Shown piece after piece: positions 21,311 to 27,197 of a stretch of 64,000 bases of DNA. The notes beneath the pieces were generated by a model that saw nothing but the letters and a program-made list of their open reading frames with translations, searched no databases and was not told where the DNA came from. The position numbers were made by a program, and so were the translations under genes. Position 1 is the stretch's first letter, and the number at the start of each line of letters is the position of its first letter. This stretch comes from Akkermansia sp. (GTDB taxonomy: Bacteria; Verrucomicrobiota; Verrucomicrobiia; Verrucomicrobiales; Akkermansiaceae): the NCBI GenBank assembly GCA_045125705.1, contig JBGVNQ010000020.1, positions 3,783 through 67,782 of the forward strand, given 5' to 3'.

Positions 21311-22711
21311 ATGGATACAGATACCCGTAAGAGCGTGGCCGCGTGGTCATCGGTGATTTGGAGCGGATTCCTCGCTGCCACCAAGCTGGTGGTGGGCATT
21401 TTCACCGGCTCGCTCGGTATCTTGTCGGAGGCGCTGCACAGTGCGCTTGATTTAGTGGCTGCGGGCGGCACTGTGTTTGCTGTGAAGGTAGCTGCACGCC
21501 CTGCTGATGACGAACACCCCTACGGCCACGGCAAGGTAGAGAACCTCATGGCTCTGGCAGAAACTCTTCTGCTGCTCGCCACCGCTGCCTGGGTTATCAT
21601 GGAAGCCTGCGAGCGTCTCCTCAGCTCCGACCCTGCTGCGCTGGAGGTGAAGTTCTCCTACTGGGCATTTGCCATCGTCATCATCTCCATTGTGGTCGAT
21701 GTGAACCGTGCCGCCATGCTCAAGCGGGTAGCGCGCGAGACCCGCAGCGCCGCGCTTGAGGCCGATGCGGCCCACTTCACCACCGATATCTGGAGCAGCG
21801 CCGCCGTGCTCCTTGGTATCACCGGTGCTGCCGTTGCAGGCATGACCGTCGAGGGCAGCTGGCTGCACTGGGTGCTCATGCGAGCAGACGTCTTTGCCTC
21901 GCTCGTGGTGGCGGCGCTCATTCTCCACGTCTGCAAGGACCTCGGCAAGCAGTCCATCAACAACCTCATGGACAAATCCAACGGCGAAGCCTCCGACAGC
22001 ATCCGCAAAGCCATGGCAGAGCGCATGCCCACCTACCCGCTCTCCCGCCTCCGTGTCCGTGAATCCGGCGCCCGCTATTACGTGGATATGGAGGTACAGG
22101 TGCCGCCCAGCCTGCATGTGGATACAGCCCATGAAATCGCCGATGCCATAGAAGAGCTTGTCGCTACCACCCTGGAAGGCGCCGAGACCATGGTGCACAT
22201 GACCCCCGCCCAGTCCCTGCCCGAGACCCCCGAATTCGTCATCCGTCGCCTGGCCCTCAGCCACCGCTTCGGCGTGCACGGCCTCGTGCTTCAGCATACG
22301 GACGATGGCAAGTTCATCATCGCCGTCGACCTTGAGCTGCCCCCTGCCGCCACGCTGGAATCCTGGCAGGTCGCAGTGGAAGCCTTCCGCAAGGAAGTAC
22401 AGCGCAACCTGAATGCCGACCTTGTAGCCCTGCATGTGGAGCCCGACCTGCGCCGCGTGCCCGCCTACACCGAGCCCCTGCCCGAGGATTGGGAAGACCA
22501 GGTGCGCCAGGCCATGATACACCGCGGCGCCCCCCTGCCCAGCAGCATCAGCTGCTACACCCGCGGCCACGAGCGCCTCTGCATCATCACCATCCCCCGC
22601 GAACCCCGCCTCACCGTCGAGGAAAGCCACGCCCGCCTCACCAAGCTCAACAAGAAGCTCGCCGAGCGCCTCCCCTCCGCAGCCCGCATCATGGTGACCT
22701 ATGAGGAATGA
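21311..22711 (+). CDS. Cation diffusion facilitator (CDF) metal efflux transporter with about 170-aa C-terminal extension
   Basis: A six-TM CDF core (LSEALHSALD, HFTTD metal-site motifs) is followed by three sequential segments that look like repeats of the CDF cytoplasmic domain. Confidence 0.85.
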   Translation: MDTDTRKSVAAWSSVIWSGFLAATKLVVGIFTGSLGILSEALHSALDLVAAGGTVFAVKVAARPADDEHPYGHGKVENLMALAETLLLLATAAWVIMEACERLLSSDPAALEVKFSYWAFAIVIISIVVDVNRAAMLKRVARETRSAALEADAAHFTTDIWSSAAVLLGITGAAVAGMTVEGSWLHWVLMRADVFASLVVAALILHVCKDLGKQSINNLMDKSNGEASDSIRKAMAERMPTYPLSRLRVRESGARYYVDMEVQVPPSLHVDTAHEIADAIEELVATTLEGAETMVHMTPAQSLPETPEFVIRRLALSHRFGVHGLVLQHTDDGKFIIAVDLELPPAATLESWQVAVEAFRKEVQRNLNADLVALHVEPDLRRVPAYTEPLPEDWEDQVRQAMIHRGAPLPSSISCYTRGHERLCIITIPREPRLTVEESHARLTKLNKKLAERLPSAARIMVTYEE

Positions 22712-22933
22712 AGAGGGATATACAAACTTGCGAATTCCTCCGCCACCAGCTCACACTAGCAACGCTAGTGTTTTCATCCTCTTTTTTCACGGGTGCAATC
22801 ACTCGGTGGGGACCTTGGCGTATTTGATTTACGCTTCCGCCTCCGAGTCGCCGAGCCTCCTATTCAGCCGTCTCCGCGTCTCGCTATCGCTCGCTTGCTA
22901 CGCCATGCCAGGCTGTTCATTAATCACTAGAAA

Positions 22934-23929
22934 TCAACATTTTCCTTGCATATTCCAAAATACTTTTGCTTCCTTTCGCGTGGTGGGAGCCATGTATCGG
23001 CTGCGCAGAAGTGATAAATCCCGGTGGCCCATTTCCAGCTGCAGCTCTGGCAGGTTTCTGAAATGTGCGGCGTGGTAGCTGGCGAAAGTATGGCGGCAGA
23101 CATCCGGCACCCAATGAGTAAACCCGGCCGCACGTCGCAAAGCCAGCCAGCGGTTCTGCCAGTTTCGAGGCACGCGGCAATCCTGTGCACGCATGCCGGG
23201 CAGCGCGCGTAGAGGTACAACTCGCCCGCCGCCAGTTTTGCTGCGCTGCGGGCGGATGATGACCTGCCGCTCCTCCCAGCACACATCCTCCGGACGCAAT
23301 CGCTCTACCTCTGCAGGGCGCACGCCGCTGTATAGCAACAGACTCAGAGAGAAACTCATATCACGGAACTGTCGTTGTTCCACCACCTTGAGCAAACGGC
23401 TCACCGCATCATTGGTAAGGGGCTCTATAGGAGACTCCTGCACAGGCGGCACTTCTATACGAGCCACCGGATTCGCATTGCACCATTCCCGTCTCTGTCC
23501 GTAAGCAAAAATACTATGCAGAATAGCCCGTCCTTTGCGGTAACTATGCGCACTGTGACCAAATGCATTGTGCAGCAGTTCGCGGCATTGTCCCACCGTC
23601 ACAGCCCGCAGCGGCAACTGAGCAAAGGCCGTATGCTTCAGCATCCTACGCACATAATGCCGTAAATCACGCGTAGTCGTAGGTCTCCGCCCTGCCCGCG
23701 CCTGCACACTCTCCCACGCAGCCTGCTCAAAAGGTACCGTCCGCTCCGCTGCCTGCACAGCTGCAATCCCCTCCCTCATCACACGCCGCACCAGCTCCAT
23801 CAACTCCACCCGTGCCATCCCTTCTGCCCGCCCCCCCAGCCCCTCCACACACTCCATCACCAGCCGCGCAGCATCAACACCATCCAGCGGCACCATCGTC
23901 ATCAGTCTTTTTATCGTTTTTGTATTCAT
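22934..23929 (-). CDS. Tyrosine site-specific recombinase (phage-integrase family)
   Basis: The C-terminal catalytic region reads ...SGVRPAEV...HTFASYHAAHF...MGHRDLSLLRSRY, giving the R..H-x-x-R/H..Y pattern. Confidence 0.85.
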   Translation of the reverse strand: MNTKTIKRLMTMVPLDGVDAARLVMECVEGLGGRAEGMARVELMELVRRVMREGIAAVQAAERTVPFEQAAWESVQARAGRRPTTTRDLRHYVRRMLKHTAFAQLPLRAVTVGQCRELLHNAFGHSAHSYRKGRAILHSIFAYGQRREWCNANPVARIEVPPVQESPIEPLTNDAVSRLLKVVEQRQFRDMSFSLSLLLYSGVRPAEVERLRPEDVCWEERQVIIRPQRSKTGGGRVVPLRALPGMRAQDCRVPRNWQNRWLALRRAAGFTHWVPDVCRHTFASYHAAHFRNLPELQLEMGHRDLSLLRSRYMAPTTRKEAKVFWNMQGKC

Positions 23930-23941
23930 AGTTGTAGTTAC

Positions 23942-24120
23942 GCATTCACAAAGCTAAGTCAATGAAAAATTGCTTGCAATGACTGTTACTGTGCAGAGGT
24001 GAATGATATAACGTCACATCTTGAAGTGCGAGATAATTTATGGCAGAGGTTGCCCTTTTCTTACTTAGGATACAAACCTTTGATTTCATGCATCCTTGCA
24101 AACCTTAGCTTTGTGAATGC
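23942..24120. promoter_or_regulatory. Candidate invertible DNA switch: 145-bp segment bounded by perfect 17-bp inverted repeats
   Basis: GCATTCACAAAGCTAAG (23942-23958) and CTTAGCTTTGTGAATGC (24104-24120). The segment lies between the divergent recombinase gene (start 23929) and membrane-protein gene (start 24137). Confidence 0.6.
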
Positions 24121-24136
24121 TGTATATTCATGATGC

Positions 24137-25510
24137 ATGACGGGTATCAATCGCATAATTAACAAACACTTACCGGAAATTGCGGTTGGTTGTTTAATGT
24201 TGTCAATGGTGGTCTCTCAGTTCTCCTACTTCTGTGATAGAACGGTATTCGGGCATGATGATTTATCTCAGATAGGGACATATTGCTGGAATTTGGAGAC
24301 AGAAGGGAGGTGGCTGATATATCTGCTATTTGACGTGTTACGGTATTTTAATACACATGTGGCATTGGTTGCAGACTTCGGGTTTATTGGTATTTTTGGA
24401 TATCTGTGCGCTAGAAAATGGTTAAATTCAGGCCAAAGTATACTAATTGCATTGCTGGTAATGCTGACTCCATCTGTGGTGCTGTTTCTTGATTGGCCAA
24501 TCATCGCCATGCCTTCCATGTTTCTACTGGCGATTGCCTCGCTGGTGTGCAAAAGAATGCCTCTCTGGCTATTTTTCTTGCTTTTCGGTATACTATTTAA
24601 TGCAACATTCAGTAATGTGTACTTCCTGTTACCGCTATTGTTTTTGAATGAGAATTCCAGAACATTGTTGCGTGTCGTGCTCTTCTGGATTGCGGGTTTT
24701 GTGATAGGTTTTGCTATTGCAGAGCTGATTACATATATTATTTGTGGGCATTTTATTGAACTTGGAGAGTGGAGAAAGCCCAATTATATAAGAAGCTTGT
24801 CGGATATTTCGACGAATGTTCTAACAGCGCTGGGATTTGCCTCTAGACACATACGTTATATGGGGAAAGTATGTGGATTTACAGGATTTCTGTGCGTTGT
24901 ATTATTTGCATGGACGCACAGGAATAATAAAATACAAGGTCTTACAATGCTTCTGGTTATGGGGTTAGTTGCCATGAGCTGTTATGCACAAAGTATTCCT
25001 GCTGGCATAGATGTGTCTATGAGAACAGCCCATTGCTTATATTTTTCCTTGATTTTATTTGTTTTGGTAAGTTGCAGGGTCAATCGTTTTCTTCTTCTGT
25101 CCTTGGTTTTGATATGGAGTGGAAGAAGCCTGAATATGAATGCAAGAAATTTAGAATGGCAAAACACAATCAGAAGTTCGTTCAGAGATGGCATTGCTAG
25201 CATTGGAGTTTCTCCTGTTGAGGTAAACGGACTTGTTATGTTAGCTGATGATAATGATGTGTATGAAATAGTAAAGTCAATCGAAGGCTCGTCTCACACA
25301 TCGAGCTATGATTTAATAATGAATCTGGATTCTTGGGCCGCCGCTCCCCGATACGAGGGGTTTAAATCTTTATGGTATCGAAAAGGAGCCGAAGAAAAGC
25401 TTAAGGAACTGGAGATTAAGGAAAATGATTTAGCTTTTACAACAAGAGGCATATACAGTTTTGCGTTATGCAAAGGTTATCTGTTCATTCGCCTCAATAC
25501 GCCCAGATAA
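24137..25510 (+). CDS. Polytopic membrane protein, low GC (GT-C/Gtr-type glycosyltransferase or polymerase-like topology; function uncertain)
   Basis: About 10 hydrophobic helices fill the first 330 aa or so, followed by a soluble tail of about 125 aa. The gene is AT-rich: 25 G+C in the 60 nt at 24241-24300, against 38 in 20281-20340. Confidence 0.55.
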   Translation: MTGINRIINKHLPEIAVGCLMLSMVVSQFSYFCDRTVFGHDDLSQIGTYCWNLETEGRWLIYLLFDVLRYFNTHVALVADFGFIGIFGYLCARKWLNSGQSILIALLVMLTPSVVLFLDWPIIAMPSMFLLAIASLVCKRMPLWLFFLLFGILFNATFSNVYFLLPLLFLNENSRTLLRVVLFWIAGFVIGFAIAELITYIICGHFIELGEWRKPNYIRSLSDISTNVLTALGFASRHIRYMGKVCGFTGFLCVVLFAWTHRNNKIQGLTMLLVMGLVAMSCYAQSIPAGIDVSMRTAHCLYFSLILFVLVSCRVNRFLLLSLVLIWSGRSLNMNARNLEWQNTIRSSFRDGIASIGVSPVEVNGLVMLADDNDVYEIVKSIEGSSHTSSYDLIMNLDSWAAAPRYEGFKSLWYRKGAEEKLKELEIKENDLAFTTRGIYSFALCKGYLFIRLNTPR

Positions 25511-25801
25511 GCGCGCAGTGCAAGATTTTTTCATAAAATATCGGTCATTGAAGAAAAACAAGGCATCCTGAATATATAGCTTAACGACGTTCTCGGTGCC
25601 CCGCCTTGCGAAGCCTAGCTCAAATAGCGTGATTCATAACATTTTTTAGAAAAACGAAATGTTCATCAGATTTTTCAATACAAAGGCTACAAAAGATCGA
25701 TGCAGGGTACTCCTCCTTATAGGAATTCCTAAATATTCTGCATTACCACTGAACGCATGCCTTAACTTCCATCCTAAATATGCTAAATACAGAAGCACAG
25801 C

Positions 25802-26863
25802 ATGTCTCCCACTGAACAACGGCTATTTTCCGCCTCTCAAATAGCTAAGGCTGGAAGCATTTTGCGCGACACCTCATCAACTGCGGATAAGGTGGGGTGG
25901 GCGTTCGGGATGCTGGATAACTTCCGCGCGCTGCACGTGGAGCCGCTGAATGTATTCCAGAACACGCTGAGAGCCCGTCTGAAGAAGCTAGGGCTGAGTG
26001 ATGCGATTGTGGCGCAGCGTATTAAGCGAAAGCCGACTATTCTGGAGAAGCTGCAGCGGTTCCGCTCGATGCGACTTGACCAGATGGATGATATTGGTGG
26101 GATTCGCGCGATTGTAAGCAGTATTGCGGAGCTGAAGGAGCTGCGAAAACTTTATACCGCAGGTTCGCACAAATTGCTGCATGAATTGCAGCGTGAGGAT
26201 GATTATATTGCCTCCCCCAAGGACTCCGGATACCGAGGTGTACATCTGGTTTTCCGTTACCAGACGAATAAGGAGGATAAGGCCGGGTACAATGGGCTGC
26301 GCATTGAAATGCAGCTGCGTACCCAGCTACAGCACACATGGGCTACCGCGGTGGAAACTTTTGAGGCTTTCATGGGCGAGAAGTTCAAATCCAGTCAGGG
26401 CGCACAGGAGTGGCTTGATTTCTTTGCCTTGGTGGCAAGTGCTTTCGCGCTCAAGGAAAAGCAGACTCCACTTCCCGCGCACAAGAATTTGACGAAGCAG
26501 GAACTTGCCCGCCGGATTAAGCAGCAGGCAAATGATTTGCAAGTGGGCCTCATGATGAAGAGTTTCTCGCTGGCTGCCAATAACCTGGCACCCAGCTACC
26601 GTCAGAAGGGCGGTCTGGCCCTGATGATTTTCGACAGTGTCACTAAGTCTGCCAATGTTACGGTTTACCCGAAAGATAAATACGAACAGGCATACGAAGC
26701 CTATGTCCGCGAAGAACAGCGCAGTAGCCAGGAAAGCACTCGCCAGGTTGTGCTGGTAAAGATGGATTCCATCCAGAAGCTGGAGAAGGCGTACCCCAAC
26801 TACTTTGCCCGGCTCAAGGATTTCCAGACGGAGTTGAAACACATCTTCGCGTGGTGCTCGTAA
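25802..26863 (+). CDS. Stand-alone RelA/SpoT-domain nucleotide pyrophosphokinase (small alarmone synthetase / toxSAS-like) with C-terminal extension
   Basis: Synthetase-fold motifs DDIGGIRAIV, DSGYRGVHLVFRY and IEMQLRTQLQHTWATAVE. There is no HD, TGS or ACT domain. Confidence 0.8.
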   Translation: MSPTEQRLFSASQIAKAGSILRDTSSTADKVGWAFGMLDNFRALHVEPLNVFQNTLRARLKKLGLSDAIVAQRIKRKPTILEKLQRFRSMRLDQMDDIGGIRAIVSSIAELKELRKLYTAGSHKLLHELQREDDYIASPKDSGYRGVHLVFRYQTNKEDKAGYNGLRIEMQLRTQLQHTWATAVETFEAFMGEKFKSSQGAQEWLDFFALVASAFALKEKQTPLPAHKNLTKQELARRIKQQANDLQVGLMMKSFSLAANNLAPSYRQKGGLALMIFDSVTKSANVTVYPKDKYEQAYEAYVREEQRSSQESTRQVVLVKMDSIQKLEKAYPNYFARLKDFQTELKHIFAWCS

Positions 26864-26919
26864 GTTGCTTTTCTTTTAGCAAAGACGAGGCTCTGCTGAT
26901 TATTTCTCTCATTTCCTGA

Positions 26920-26947
26920 TTGACTGAGGCTCTGAGTATGTTATAAT
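26920..26947 (+). promoter_or_regulatory. Strong sigma70-like promoter TTGACT-16-TGtTATAAT (extended -10)
   Basis: -35 at 26920-26925, TG at 26939-26940 and -10 at 26942-26947. The -10 overlaps the first ATG of the long ORF, which favours the ATG at 26964 as the true start. Confidence 0.5.
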
Positions 26948-26963
26948 GTGCGTTCATAGGGGT

Positions 26964-27197
26964 ATGAATAACCACCCCGGGTTAGAAACAGTGGACGACG
27001 ATATCATTTGCACAGAGAAAATCATTGCTGACCGCAAGACCTTTTTCATTGACCTGAAGAGCAACGCCCGTGGGCGTGTGGTGCGCATCACCGAAAAGGT
27101 AAGCTCGAACCGTGACCGCATCATGGTTCCTGCAGAAATCCTGGACGATTTCATTGCCGCGCTGGAGGATATCCGCCGCGCCAATAACGAGCATTGA
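26964..27197 (+). CDS. PUR-alpha-like (DUF3276-type) nucleic-acid-binding protein
   Basis: FFIDLKSNARGRVVRITEK...RDRIMVPAEILDDFIAALEDI fits a single PUR repeat (beta-sheet followed by a helix). Confidence 0.6.
   Translation: MNNHPGLETVDDDIICTEKIIADRKTFFIDLKSNARGRVVRITEKVSSNRDRIMVPAEILDDFIAALEDIRRANNEH

Follow-up and report, generated by a model that had tools for sequence, protein, structure and literature searches.

The stretch of DNA considered here (the window) comprises 64,000 nucleotides of an Akkermansia sp. genome (GenBank assembly GCA_045125705.1, contig JBGVNQ010000020.1, positions 3,783 to 67,782 of the forward strand). In an interval bounded by a core CDF cation-efflux gene on the left (21311..22711, plus strand, kept across the loci compared) and a core PurA-like gene on the right (26910..27197, plus strand; 77 amino acids (aa) from 26964), it carries an ATG-started open reading frame (ORF) of 353 aa plus stop (25802..26863, plus strand), which homology, family profiles and Foldseek comparison identify as a CapRel-family gene for a fused toxin-antitoxin of the toxic small alarmone synthetase (toxSAS) type. 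An earlier note, made from the letters of the window, had placed this ORF correctly, with its ATG start and its 353 aa, and the motifs it quoted (DDIGGIRAIV, DSGYRGVHLVFRY, IEMQLRTQLQHTWATAVE and KLEKAYPNYFARLKDFQ) are seen in the translation; the protein end that it gave (...KDFQ) was misplaced, the actual C-terminus lying 12 residues further (TELKHIFAWCS). A single Pfam domain is detected, RelA_SpoT (residues 72-182, E 1.2e-15), in agreement with the description of a RelA/SpoT core devoid of the HD, TGS and ACT domains.

Searched with phmmer against the Protein Data Bank (PDB), the protein matches CapRel (7ZTB/9ERV) at E 1e-37, from query residues 8-343 to chain residues 14-364, and RelQ/YjbM and RelP/YwaC at E 3e-9 or weaker, over the catalytic core only. 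The two CapRel entries appear in the sequence search under the name 'RelA/SpoT family protein', and in the fold library as 'Salmonella tRNA pyrophosphokinase CapRel'. A family profile built from 49 homologues of the CapRel-like protein places CapRel (E 5.6e-70, 239 bits, profile positions 5-344) far above RelQ (E 1e-19, 73 bits) and FaRel2, whose likeness is marginal (E 0.08, 15 bits), and returned no FaRel or Tas1 entry among its PDB matches, even to E 10. Judged by these scores against PDB representatives, the protein is nearer over its full length to CapRel than to the other classes of RelA/SpoT homologues (RSH) or toxSAS.

Other collections give a similar picture. The gene product of Salmonella phage SJ46 is matched by BLASTP at 32% identity over 358 columns (E 4e-44), and the RelA/SpoT gene of the same phage is the best tblastn match over 50,697 phage genomes. 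Full-length matches are also found to PDC-S33 (E 5.9e-112, 338/349 profile positions), a single-gene defence-candidate family of PADLOC, and to PHROG 4773 (E 7.6e-97, 339/353 positions), both of them computational families without a described function; a literature search returned no paper text naming PDC-S33. The protein collection holds 4062 homologues, of which the near relatives (87-99% identical) all come from Akkermansia/Akkermansiaceae genomes and gut metagenomes, and IMG/VR viral contigs hold 251 relatives at 33-43% identity, none of the Akkermansia clade. One homologue from Cupriavidus sp. (P0066, 438 aa, 45% identity) has an extra DUF2188 domain (PF09954), a variant of the family architecture.

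The structure predicted by AlphaFold2 with the 49-sequence alignment (predicted local distance difference test score 86, predicted template-modelling score 0.81) runs from the catalytic domain through three helices to a strand-strand-helix-strand unit (269-323); YPNY is surrounded by short helices, and the chain closes with a terminal helix. Foldseek against the PDB ranks CapRel 7ZTB first for this model (E 1.7e-21, template-modelling (TM) scores 0.70/0.72, 355 aligned columns, full length), and the small alarmone synthetase (SAS) enzymes cover about 185 residues of its N-terminal half, with a TM score of about 0.4 on the query and about 0.7 on the target. Only partial matches to the RelA/SpoT core, and no full-length CapRel-like model, were found among the viral structures of BFVD.

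These comparisons bear directly on whether the gene could be a housekeeping SAS of the RelQ/RelP/RelV kind, making (p)ppGpp for the stringent response. RelQ (SAS1/YjbM) and RelP (SAS2/YwaC) do have the RelA/SpoT catalytic fold in common with the window protein, the NCBIfam YjbM and Pfam RelA_SpoT models match its catalytic core, and the source databases label its relatives '(p)ppGpp synthetase'. However, the score against the NCBIfam YjbM equivalog is 53 bits for a curated cut-off of 320, the C-terminal 150 aa that the SAS structures leave uncovered are CapRel-like, and the gene is missing from most conspecific contigs sampled at the site, whereas RelQ and RelP are core genes without a C-terminal antitoxin or sensor domain. 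On architecture, YjbM score and distribution this explanation was rejected as highly improbable, and the protein falls outside the RelQ, RelP and RelV groups.

Along the gene, all on the plus strand, the CapRel architecture can be followed segment by segment. The first 200 residues (25802..26401), delimited by the Pfam match and by residue mapping onto CapRel SJ46, correspond to the toxSYNTH toxin domain, a RelA/SpoT-fold pyrophosphokinase, here with an isoelectric point (pI) of 9.8. They are followed by a helical linker or 'anchor' (aa 201-262, 26402..26587) of three predicted helices (202-218, 232-245 and 248-259), and by a pseudo-zinc-finger domain (pZFD; aa 263-323, 26588..26770), the putative sensor and antitoxin, recognized from the model, from Foldseek and from composition. 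Its predicted elements (strands 269-278 and 283-289, helix 291-310, strand 314-323) follow a beta-beta-alpha-beta order, and residues 263-323 contain neither Cys nor His. The pZFD of CapRel has been described as a 'three-stranded sheet with a helix connecting beta7 and beta8', with no cysteines (PMC9712102), a description that the predicted anchors and pZFD fit. The last segment (26771..26860), identified by BLASTP and residue mapping, would be the autoinhibition segment, with A330, the Y331-P-N-Y334 motif (nt 26792-26803) and the terminal helix.

The residues on which CapRel SJ46 depends are known from Zhang et al. 2022 (PMC9712102): the substitution Y155A in the G-loop abolishes defence, Arg79 and Arg116 coordinate the adenine, a YXXY motif (Tyr352, Tyr355) inserts between these two arginines in the closed state, and substitutions at the interface positions A77, V338, L339, A341 and A351 lead to constitutive toxicity. 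The letters of the 7ZTB chain reproduce all of these published residues in its own numbering. In the alignment, SJ46 A77, R79, R116 and Y155 correspond to window A71, R73, R102 and Y144, so that the toxSYNTH domain contains the two ATP-adenine arginines, the interface alanine and the G-loop tyrosine (nt 26231-26233); SJ46 V338, L339, A351, Y352 and Y355 correspond to V317, L318, A330, Y331 and Y334, with V317 and L318 on the last strand of the pZFD, just upstream of the autoinhibition segment. Apart from A71, the mapped residues are invariant in the 49 homologues, and residues 221-300 are the least conserved of that alignment. In its likeness to CapRel SJ46 the window protein combines a single ORF of ~350-370 aa, collinear over its full length and top of the structural matches, with a toxSYNTH domain in which the G-loop Tyr and both Arg that coordinate the adenine are present, with helical anchors, a cysteine-free pZFD, the YXXY autoinhibitory motif in a conserved V-L...A-Y-P-N-Y-F setting, and a location on mobile or variable DNA. 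It differs in being 20 aa shorter, mainly in loops after beta1 and within the pZFD, and in belonging to a gut commensal of the Verrucomicrobiota, in which the gene occupies a chromosomal variable site and not a prophage.

Upstream of the start codon, a putative promoter region (25740..25801, plus strand) is delimited by conservation across the Akkermansia copies of the gene. It contains a -35-like TTAACT (25762-25767), a 16-nt spacer ending in TGc, and a -10-like TAAATA (25784-25789); a consensus promoter scan did not flag this element. As 12 nt separate TAAATA from the ATG, the mRNA would be near-leaderless. When the copies are aligned at their start codons, some 45-60 nt upstream of the ATG are kept in nearly all Akkermansia copies whatever the neighbouring genes (the copy at L008, related loci being designated here by L-numbers, has diverged), with the layout TTGACT, 16 nt ending in TGc, TAAATA, 12 nt and ATG. 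Homology between Akkermansia copies is lost beyond these ~45-60 nt and, between species, directly after the stop codon, which indicates that the mobile unit is a cassette of about 1.1 kb made up of promoter and ORF. At the -35-like hexamer the window has TTAACT as compared with TTGACT in nearly every other Akkermansia copy (TTGACA in L004), and the cassette promoter of the window strain may be the weaker for it. The 13-nt sequence TCCTAAATAT(T/G)CT is directly repeated 45 nt apart: a first copy (25727-25739) stands at the left edge of the homology among cassettes, and a second (25772-25784) falls within the promoter spacer. In AT-rich DNA such a repeat could be due to chance, or else it could serve as a regulatory box.

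Downstream of the gene, a 3' tail of the insert (26864..26909, plus strand), common to same-species copies only, contains a weak hairpin (TTGCT-TTTCTTTT-AGCAA), and no terminator was called in it. The right border of the cassette falls 10 nt upstream of the -35 of the PurA-like gene promoter, which is the strongest sigma-70-like promoter of the region (TTGACT at 26920, 16 nt with a TG extension, TATAAT at 26942). As to base composition, the 'AT-rich island' in which the earlier note set the gene holds for the gene upstream, which encodes the 457-aa membrane protein, and for the gap that follows it (GC 0.39-0.40), the CapRel-like gene itself being moderately GC-poor (GC 0.526, GC at third codon positions (GC3) 0.64) relative to its core neighbours (GC 0.58-0.63, GC3 0.78-0.80).

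The interval between the CDF and PurA-like genes (22712-26909 in the window) was compared among contigs encoding exactly the GT4 and PurA-like proteins of the window (L007-L009, L016-L031), and takes at least four states in strains with identical flanking proteins. The site may be empty, with a gap of about 83 bp (12 of the loci listed); it may hold the CapRel-like gene as its sole insert (L018, L026 and L030); it may hold a recombinase, the 457-aa membrane protein and the CapRel-like gene (the window, L007 and L024); or it may hold a Fic gene, a recombinase, a type I restriction-modification (R-M) system, the CapRel-like gene and a helix-turn-helix (HTH)-Fic gene (L008 and L009). These empty, gene-alone and larger-cargo states indicate that the CapRel-like gene is accessory and not part of a conserved core. 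In the gene-alone strains it stands by itself between two core genes, which confirms that no separate antitoxin ORF accompanies it. The additional cargo of the window consists of a tyrosine recombinase gene (22934-23929, minus strand) and the low-GC membrane-protein gene (24137-25510, plus strand), both absent from gene-alone strains, and of a 17-nt perfect inverted repeat between them (23942-23958 / 24104-24120), the sole strong repeat found. Since no att-like direct repeats were found bounding the variable region, and no tRNA gene in the window, the region is not called an integrative element.

The same comparison speaks to a possible pairing with the adjacent PurA-like nucleic-acid-binding protein, in a two-gene arrangement resembling PANGU. 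The PurA-like gene does lie 100 bp downstream on the same strand, and PANGU type I couples a DNA-binding protein with a toxSAS that is activated by the nucleoid protein. Yet the PurA-like gene has its own strong promoter and stands beside the CDF gene at empty sites, and in other species the CapRel-like gene adjoins bipA, leuS or Fic genes instead. PANGU type I further combines a YejK-like nucleoid-associated partner of at least 300 aa with a toxSAS, GRel, whose C-terminal domain is an acidic DNA mimic, whereas the window locus has no YejK-like partner, its neighbour being the 77-aa core protein, and the C-terminal domain of the window protein has a pI of 8.3 and carries the YXXY motif. With the PurA-like gene present at empty sites and the PANGU features absent, this pairing was rejected, having very little probability left to it.

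Beyond this site, the promoter-plus-ORF unit occurs at three or more chromosomal sites among Akkermansia species. In UBA3385, another species, one CapRel-like copy follows a type I R-M system, and a frameshifted stub (~111 codons, L006:10001-10334) follows a DUF4011/MTES_1575 helicase-nuclease and an AAA_13 ATPase, beside a Fic gene; other species still have the gene upstream of bipA, or with uvrC and leuS on either side of it. A deletion remnant that joins residues 1-64 to 256-353 in an in-frame-like manner is found on six metagenome contigs (L010-L015, e.g. L010:4602-5082), where it adjoins uvrC and a gene for a 1349-aa SNF2 helicase. Defence-type neighbours of the gene in relatives include type I R-M, the DUF4011/MTES_1575 helicase-nuclease, the AAA_13 ATPase and Fic/Doc, and the CapRel reading is supported by the presence/absence polymorphism at the window site, where type I R-M and Fic genes accumulate as well.

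Several side observations concern these neighbours. Homologues of the window tyrosine recombinase lie directly upstream of type I R-M genes or of the DUF4011/MTES_1575 helicase-nuclease with AAA_13 (L001:1-7831, L008:2550-9839, L006:1-9702), and in L001 hsdS and hsdR are separated by additional short ORFs. What the recombinase governs may be the phase variation of differing defence cargos rather than island integration. An HTH_17 + Fic/Doc gene of about 300 aa is found directly 3' of the CapRel-like gene or stub in three contexts (L005:2734-3672, L006:10385-11323, L008:11247-12143) and has no counterpart in the window; possibly this gene, too, has a toxin or defence function and travels with the cassette. 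At the bipA site, a DUF6088 protein (210 aa) and an overlapping gene of 343-353 aa precede the CapRel-like gene (L002:4761-6417, L003:7443-9129), and these may form an AbiE-like pair, the domain scan having covered the DUF6088 protein.

The 11 full-length Akkermansia alleles are all 353 codons long and free of stops and indels, and the ratio of nonsynonymous to synonymous substitution rates (dN/dS) among them is 0.045, with dS saturated at about 1.1: the gene is under strong purifying selection. The helical anchors are the most variable segment (dN/dS 0.073), and a test for diversifying selection on the sensor domain of the same alleles was negative. An arms-race signature has been reported for enterobacterial CapRels, with the sensor as their least conserved region, and the Akkermansia pZFD, whose variability does not exceed that of the catalytic domain, argues that no such race is under way among these alleles. 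It hints instead at a conserved trigger. On the side of expression, assembled contigs from gut metatranscriptomes (four runs, all from one study) match 25946-26972 with an identity of about 98-99%, at a depth on the CapRel-like gene below that on the neighbouring glycosyltransferase gene, and no such contig covers the recombinase or the membrane-protein gene. This suggests, with moderate confidence, that the gene is transcribed in vivo, probably in a gene-alone strain.

For the window strain, the regulation of the gene may be more particular. The gene starts 291 bp downstream of the membrane-protein gene (which ends at 25510) on the same strand, no terminator was predicted between the two, and a putative invertible promoter of the upstream gene, together with the weakened -35 of the cassette itself, may provide a basis for phase-variable expression. 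Combining these elements, one may speculate that the Akkermansia CapRel clade senses an unusually invariant trigger and that its expression in the window strain is partly phase-variable, a scenario that we consider rather doubtful as a whole. The pZFD of this clade is under purifying selection as strong as that on the catalytic domain across several species (dN/dS about 0.03, dS saturated), and its ligand could accordingly be some phage protein of high conservation, or a complex that includes a host factor, as was lately reported for CapRel-Ebc with FtsZ.

Could the fused toxin-antitoxin, instead of defending against phage, be a selfish or stabilizing addiction module of the variable region? 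Its location in a recombination-prone site with mobile cargo, and a sensor that lacks diversifying selection within Akkermansia, would both suit such a module. Addiction, however, exploits the differential decay of a separate antitoxin, which a single polypeptide cannot use, and where the gene stands alone at the site (L018, L026, L030) there is nothing to stabilize. Its loss is moreover tolerated, as the degraded remnants in L006 and L010-L015 attest, and three fused CapRels (SJ46, Ebc and Kp) were assayed as phage defences in the 2022 paper. An addiction module is accordingly an unlikely explanation of the gene.

The reading that we favour, and hold to be probable, is that the gene encodes a fused CapRel-type toxin-antitoxin acting as a one-protein anti-phage sensor. 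Every computationally testable hallmark of the fused CapRel family, in sequence, predicted structure and architecture, appears to be present, and of the possibilities raised by the earlier note, a toxSAS or CapRel-like fused toxin-antitoxin, it is the CapRel option that is sustained by the full-length homology, the fold, the mapped residues, PDC-S33 and the accessory distribution. As regards the enzymatic substrate, the autoinhibition, the trigger and the protection against phage, we infer the behaviour of the window protein by analogy with characterized CapRels. In an uninfected cell, the C-terminal pZFD would fold back on the N-terminal toxSYNTH domain, and the Y331-P-N-Y334 turn, inserted between R73 and R102, would block the ATP (pyrophosphate-donor) site. 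Upon infection, the pZFD and the anchor region would be bound by a phage protein, perhaps with a host factor taking part, and the pZFD would be kept away; the freed enzyme would then move pyrophosphate from ATP onto tRNA 3'-CCA ends, so that translation would halt and the infection would abort. Triggers known for CapRels are a major capsid protein, Bas11 Gp54, and T7 Gp0.4 when complexed with FtsZ.

The choice of tRNA as the substrate relies on a rule published for toxSAS (PMC11782079), by which those inhibited at the donor site through a pZFD/YXXY arrangement form the tRNA-targeting class, the makers of (pp)pApp being inhibited at the acceptor site by Tis1-like domains; a basic toxSYNTH domain fits this choice. 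The same class of toxSYNTH, with pZFD/YXXY neutralization of the donor site, is found in the unfused pairs CapRel/ATcapRel, PhRel/ATphRel (e.g. gp29/gp30 of mycobacteriophage Phrann) and FaRel2/ATfaRel2 (PMC11782079); these are bicistronic, whereas the window toxin and antitoxin form one polypeptide with no neighbouring antitoxin gene. A self-inhibited toxSAS could also act by making a toxic alarmone, (pp)pApp or pppGpp, thereby depleting ATP or shutting down metabolism, instead of modifying tRNA: the fold is common to toxSAS of both chemistries, identity to the tRNA-modifying SJ46 enzyme is about 33%, and the GRel toxSAS effector has recently been described as a producer of pppGpp. Against this chemistry stand the donor-site rule that ties the pZFD/YXXY arrangement, present here, to tRNA targeting, the absence at the window locus of an adjacent gene for a Tis1-like neutralizer such as accompanies the (pp)pApp-making FaRel and Tas1, and the strongly basic toxSYNTH domain, which would suit RNA binding. 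An alarmone product is for these reasons improbable.

Several points nevertheless weigh against a CapRel-type anti-phage sensor. The protein shares only 32-34% identity with the characterized CapRel, and its sensor core (aa ~220-310), taken alone, cannot be aligned by BLAST. When the C-terminal halves alone are compared by BLASTP with SJ46, similarity is significant over the last 33 residues only (E 2e-6), so that the sensor core is backed by the fold prediction and the profile alignment; its divergence from SJ46 is as expected for the CapRel family. At the position of SJ46 A341 the window protein has a lysine, K320, and A341K made SJ46 constitutively toxic (PMC9712102). The 49 homologues have K (20), S (18) or A (6) at position 320, K being the commonest residue, and because the position varies in the clade, K320 probably reflects a co-adapted interface and not a deregulated toxin. 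The Foldseek superposition on 7ZTB has a root-mean-square deviation of 9 Å, which would fit a different inter-domain angle, the crystal being an open form. Unlike what has been reported for enterobacterial CapRels, the sensor is not hypervariable among the close alleles of the window clade, with a dN/dS of 0.034 for the pZFD vs 0.043 for toxSYNTH among the 11 Akkermansia alleles. The metatranscriptome contigs are assemblies that possibly contain DNA. Lastly, no Akkermansia phage carrying or triggering the gene was found.

Akkermansia is a major commensal of the human gut and a candidate therapeutic organism, and little, to our knowledge, is known of its phage defences. A literature search returned no paper linking Akkermansia or the Verrucomicrobiota with CapRel or toxSAS. 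This kind of system is already well characterized and the family is common, and the finding extends it by one member and one host lineage without adding a mechanism. Its main value lies in this lineage and in a single site of which empty, filled and expanded alleles occur naturally: wild strains with identical flanks constitute a ready comparison set for finding Akkermansia phages that are restricted by the gene and, from these, the trigger.

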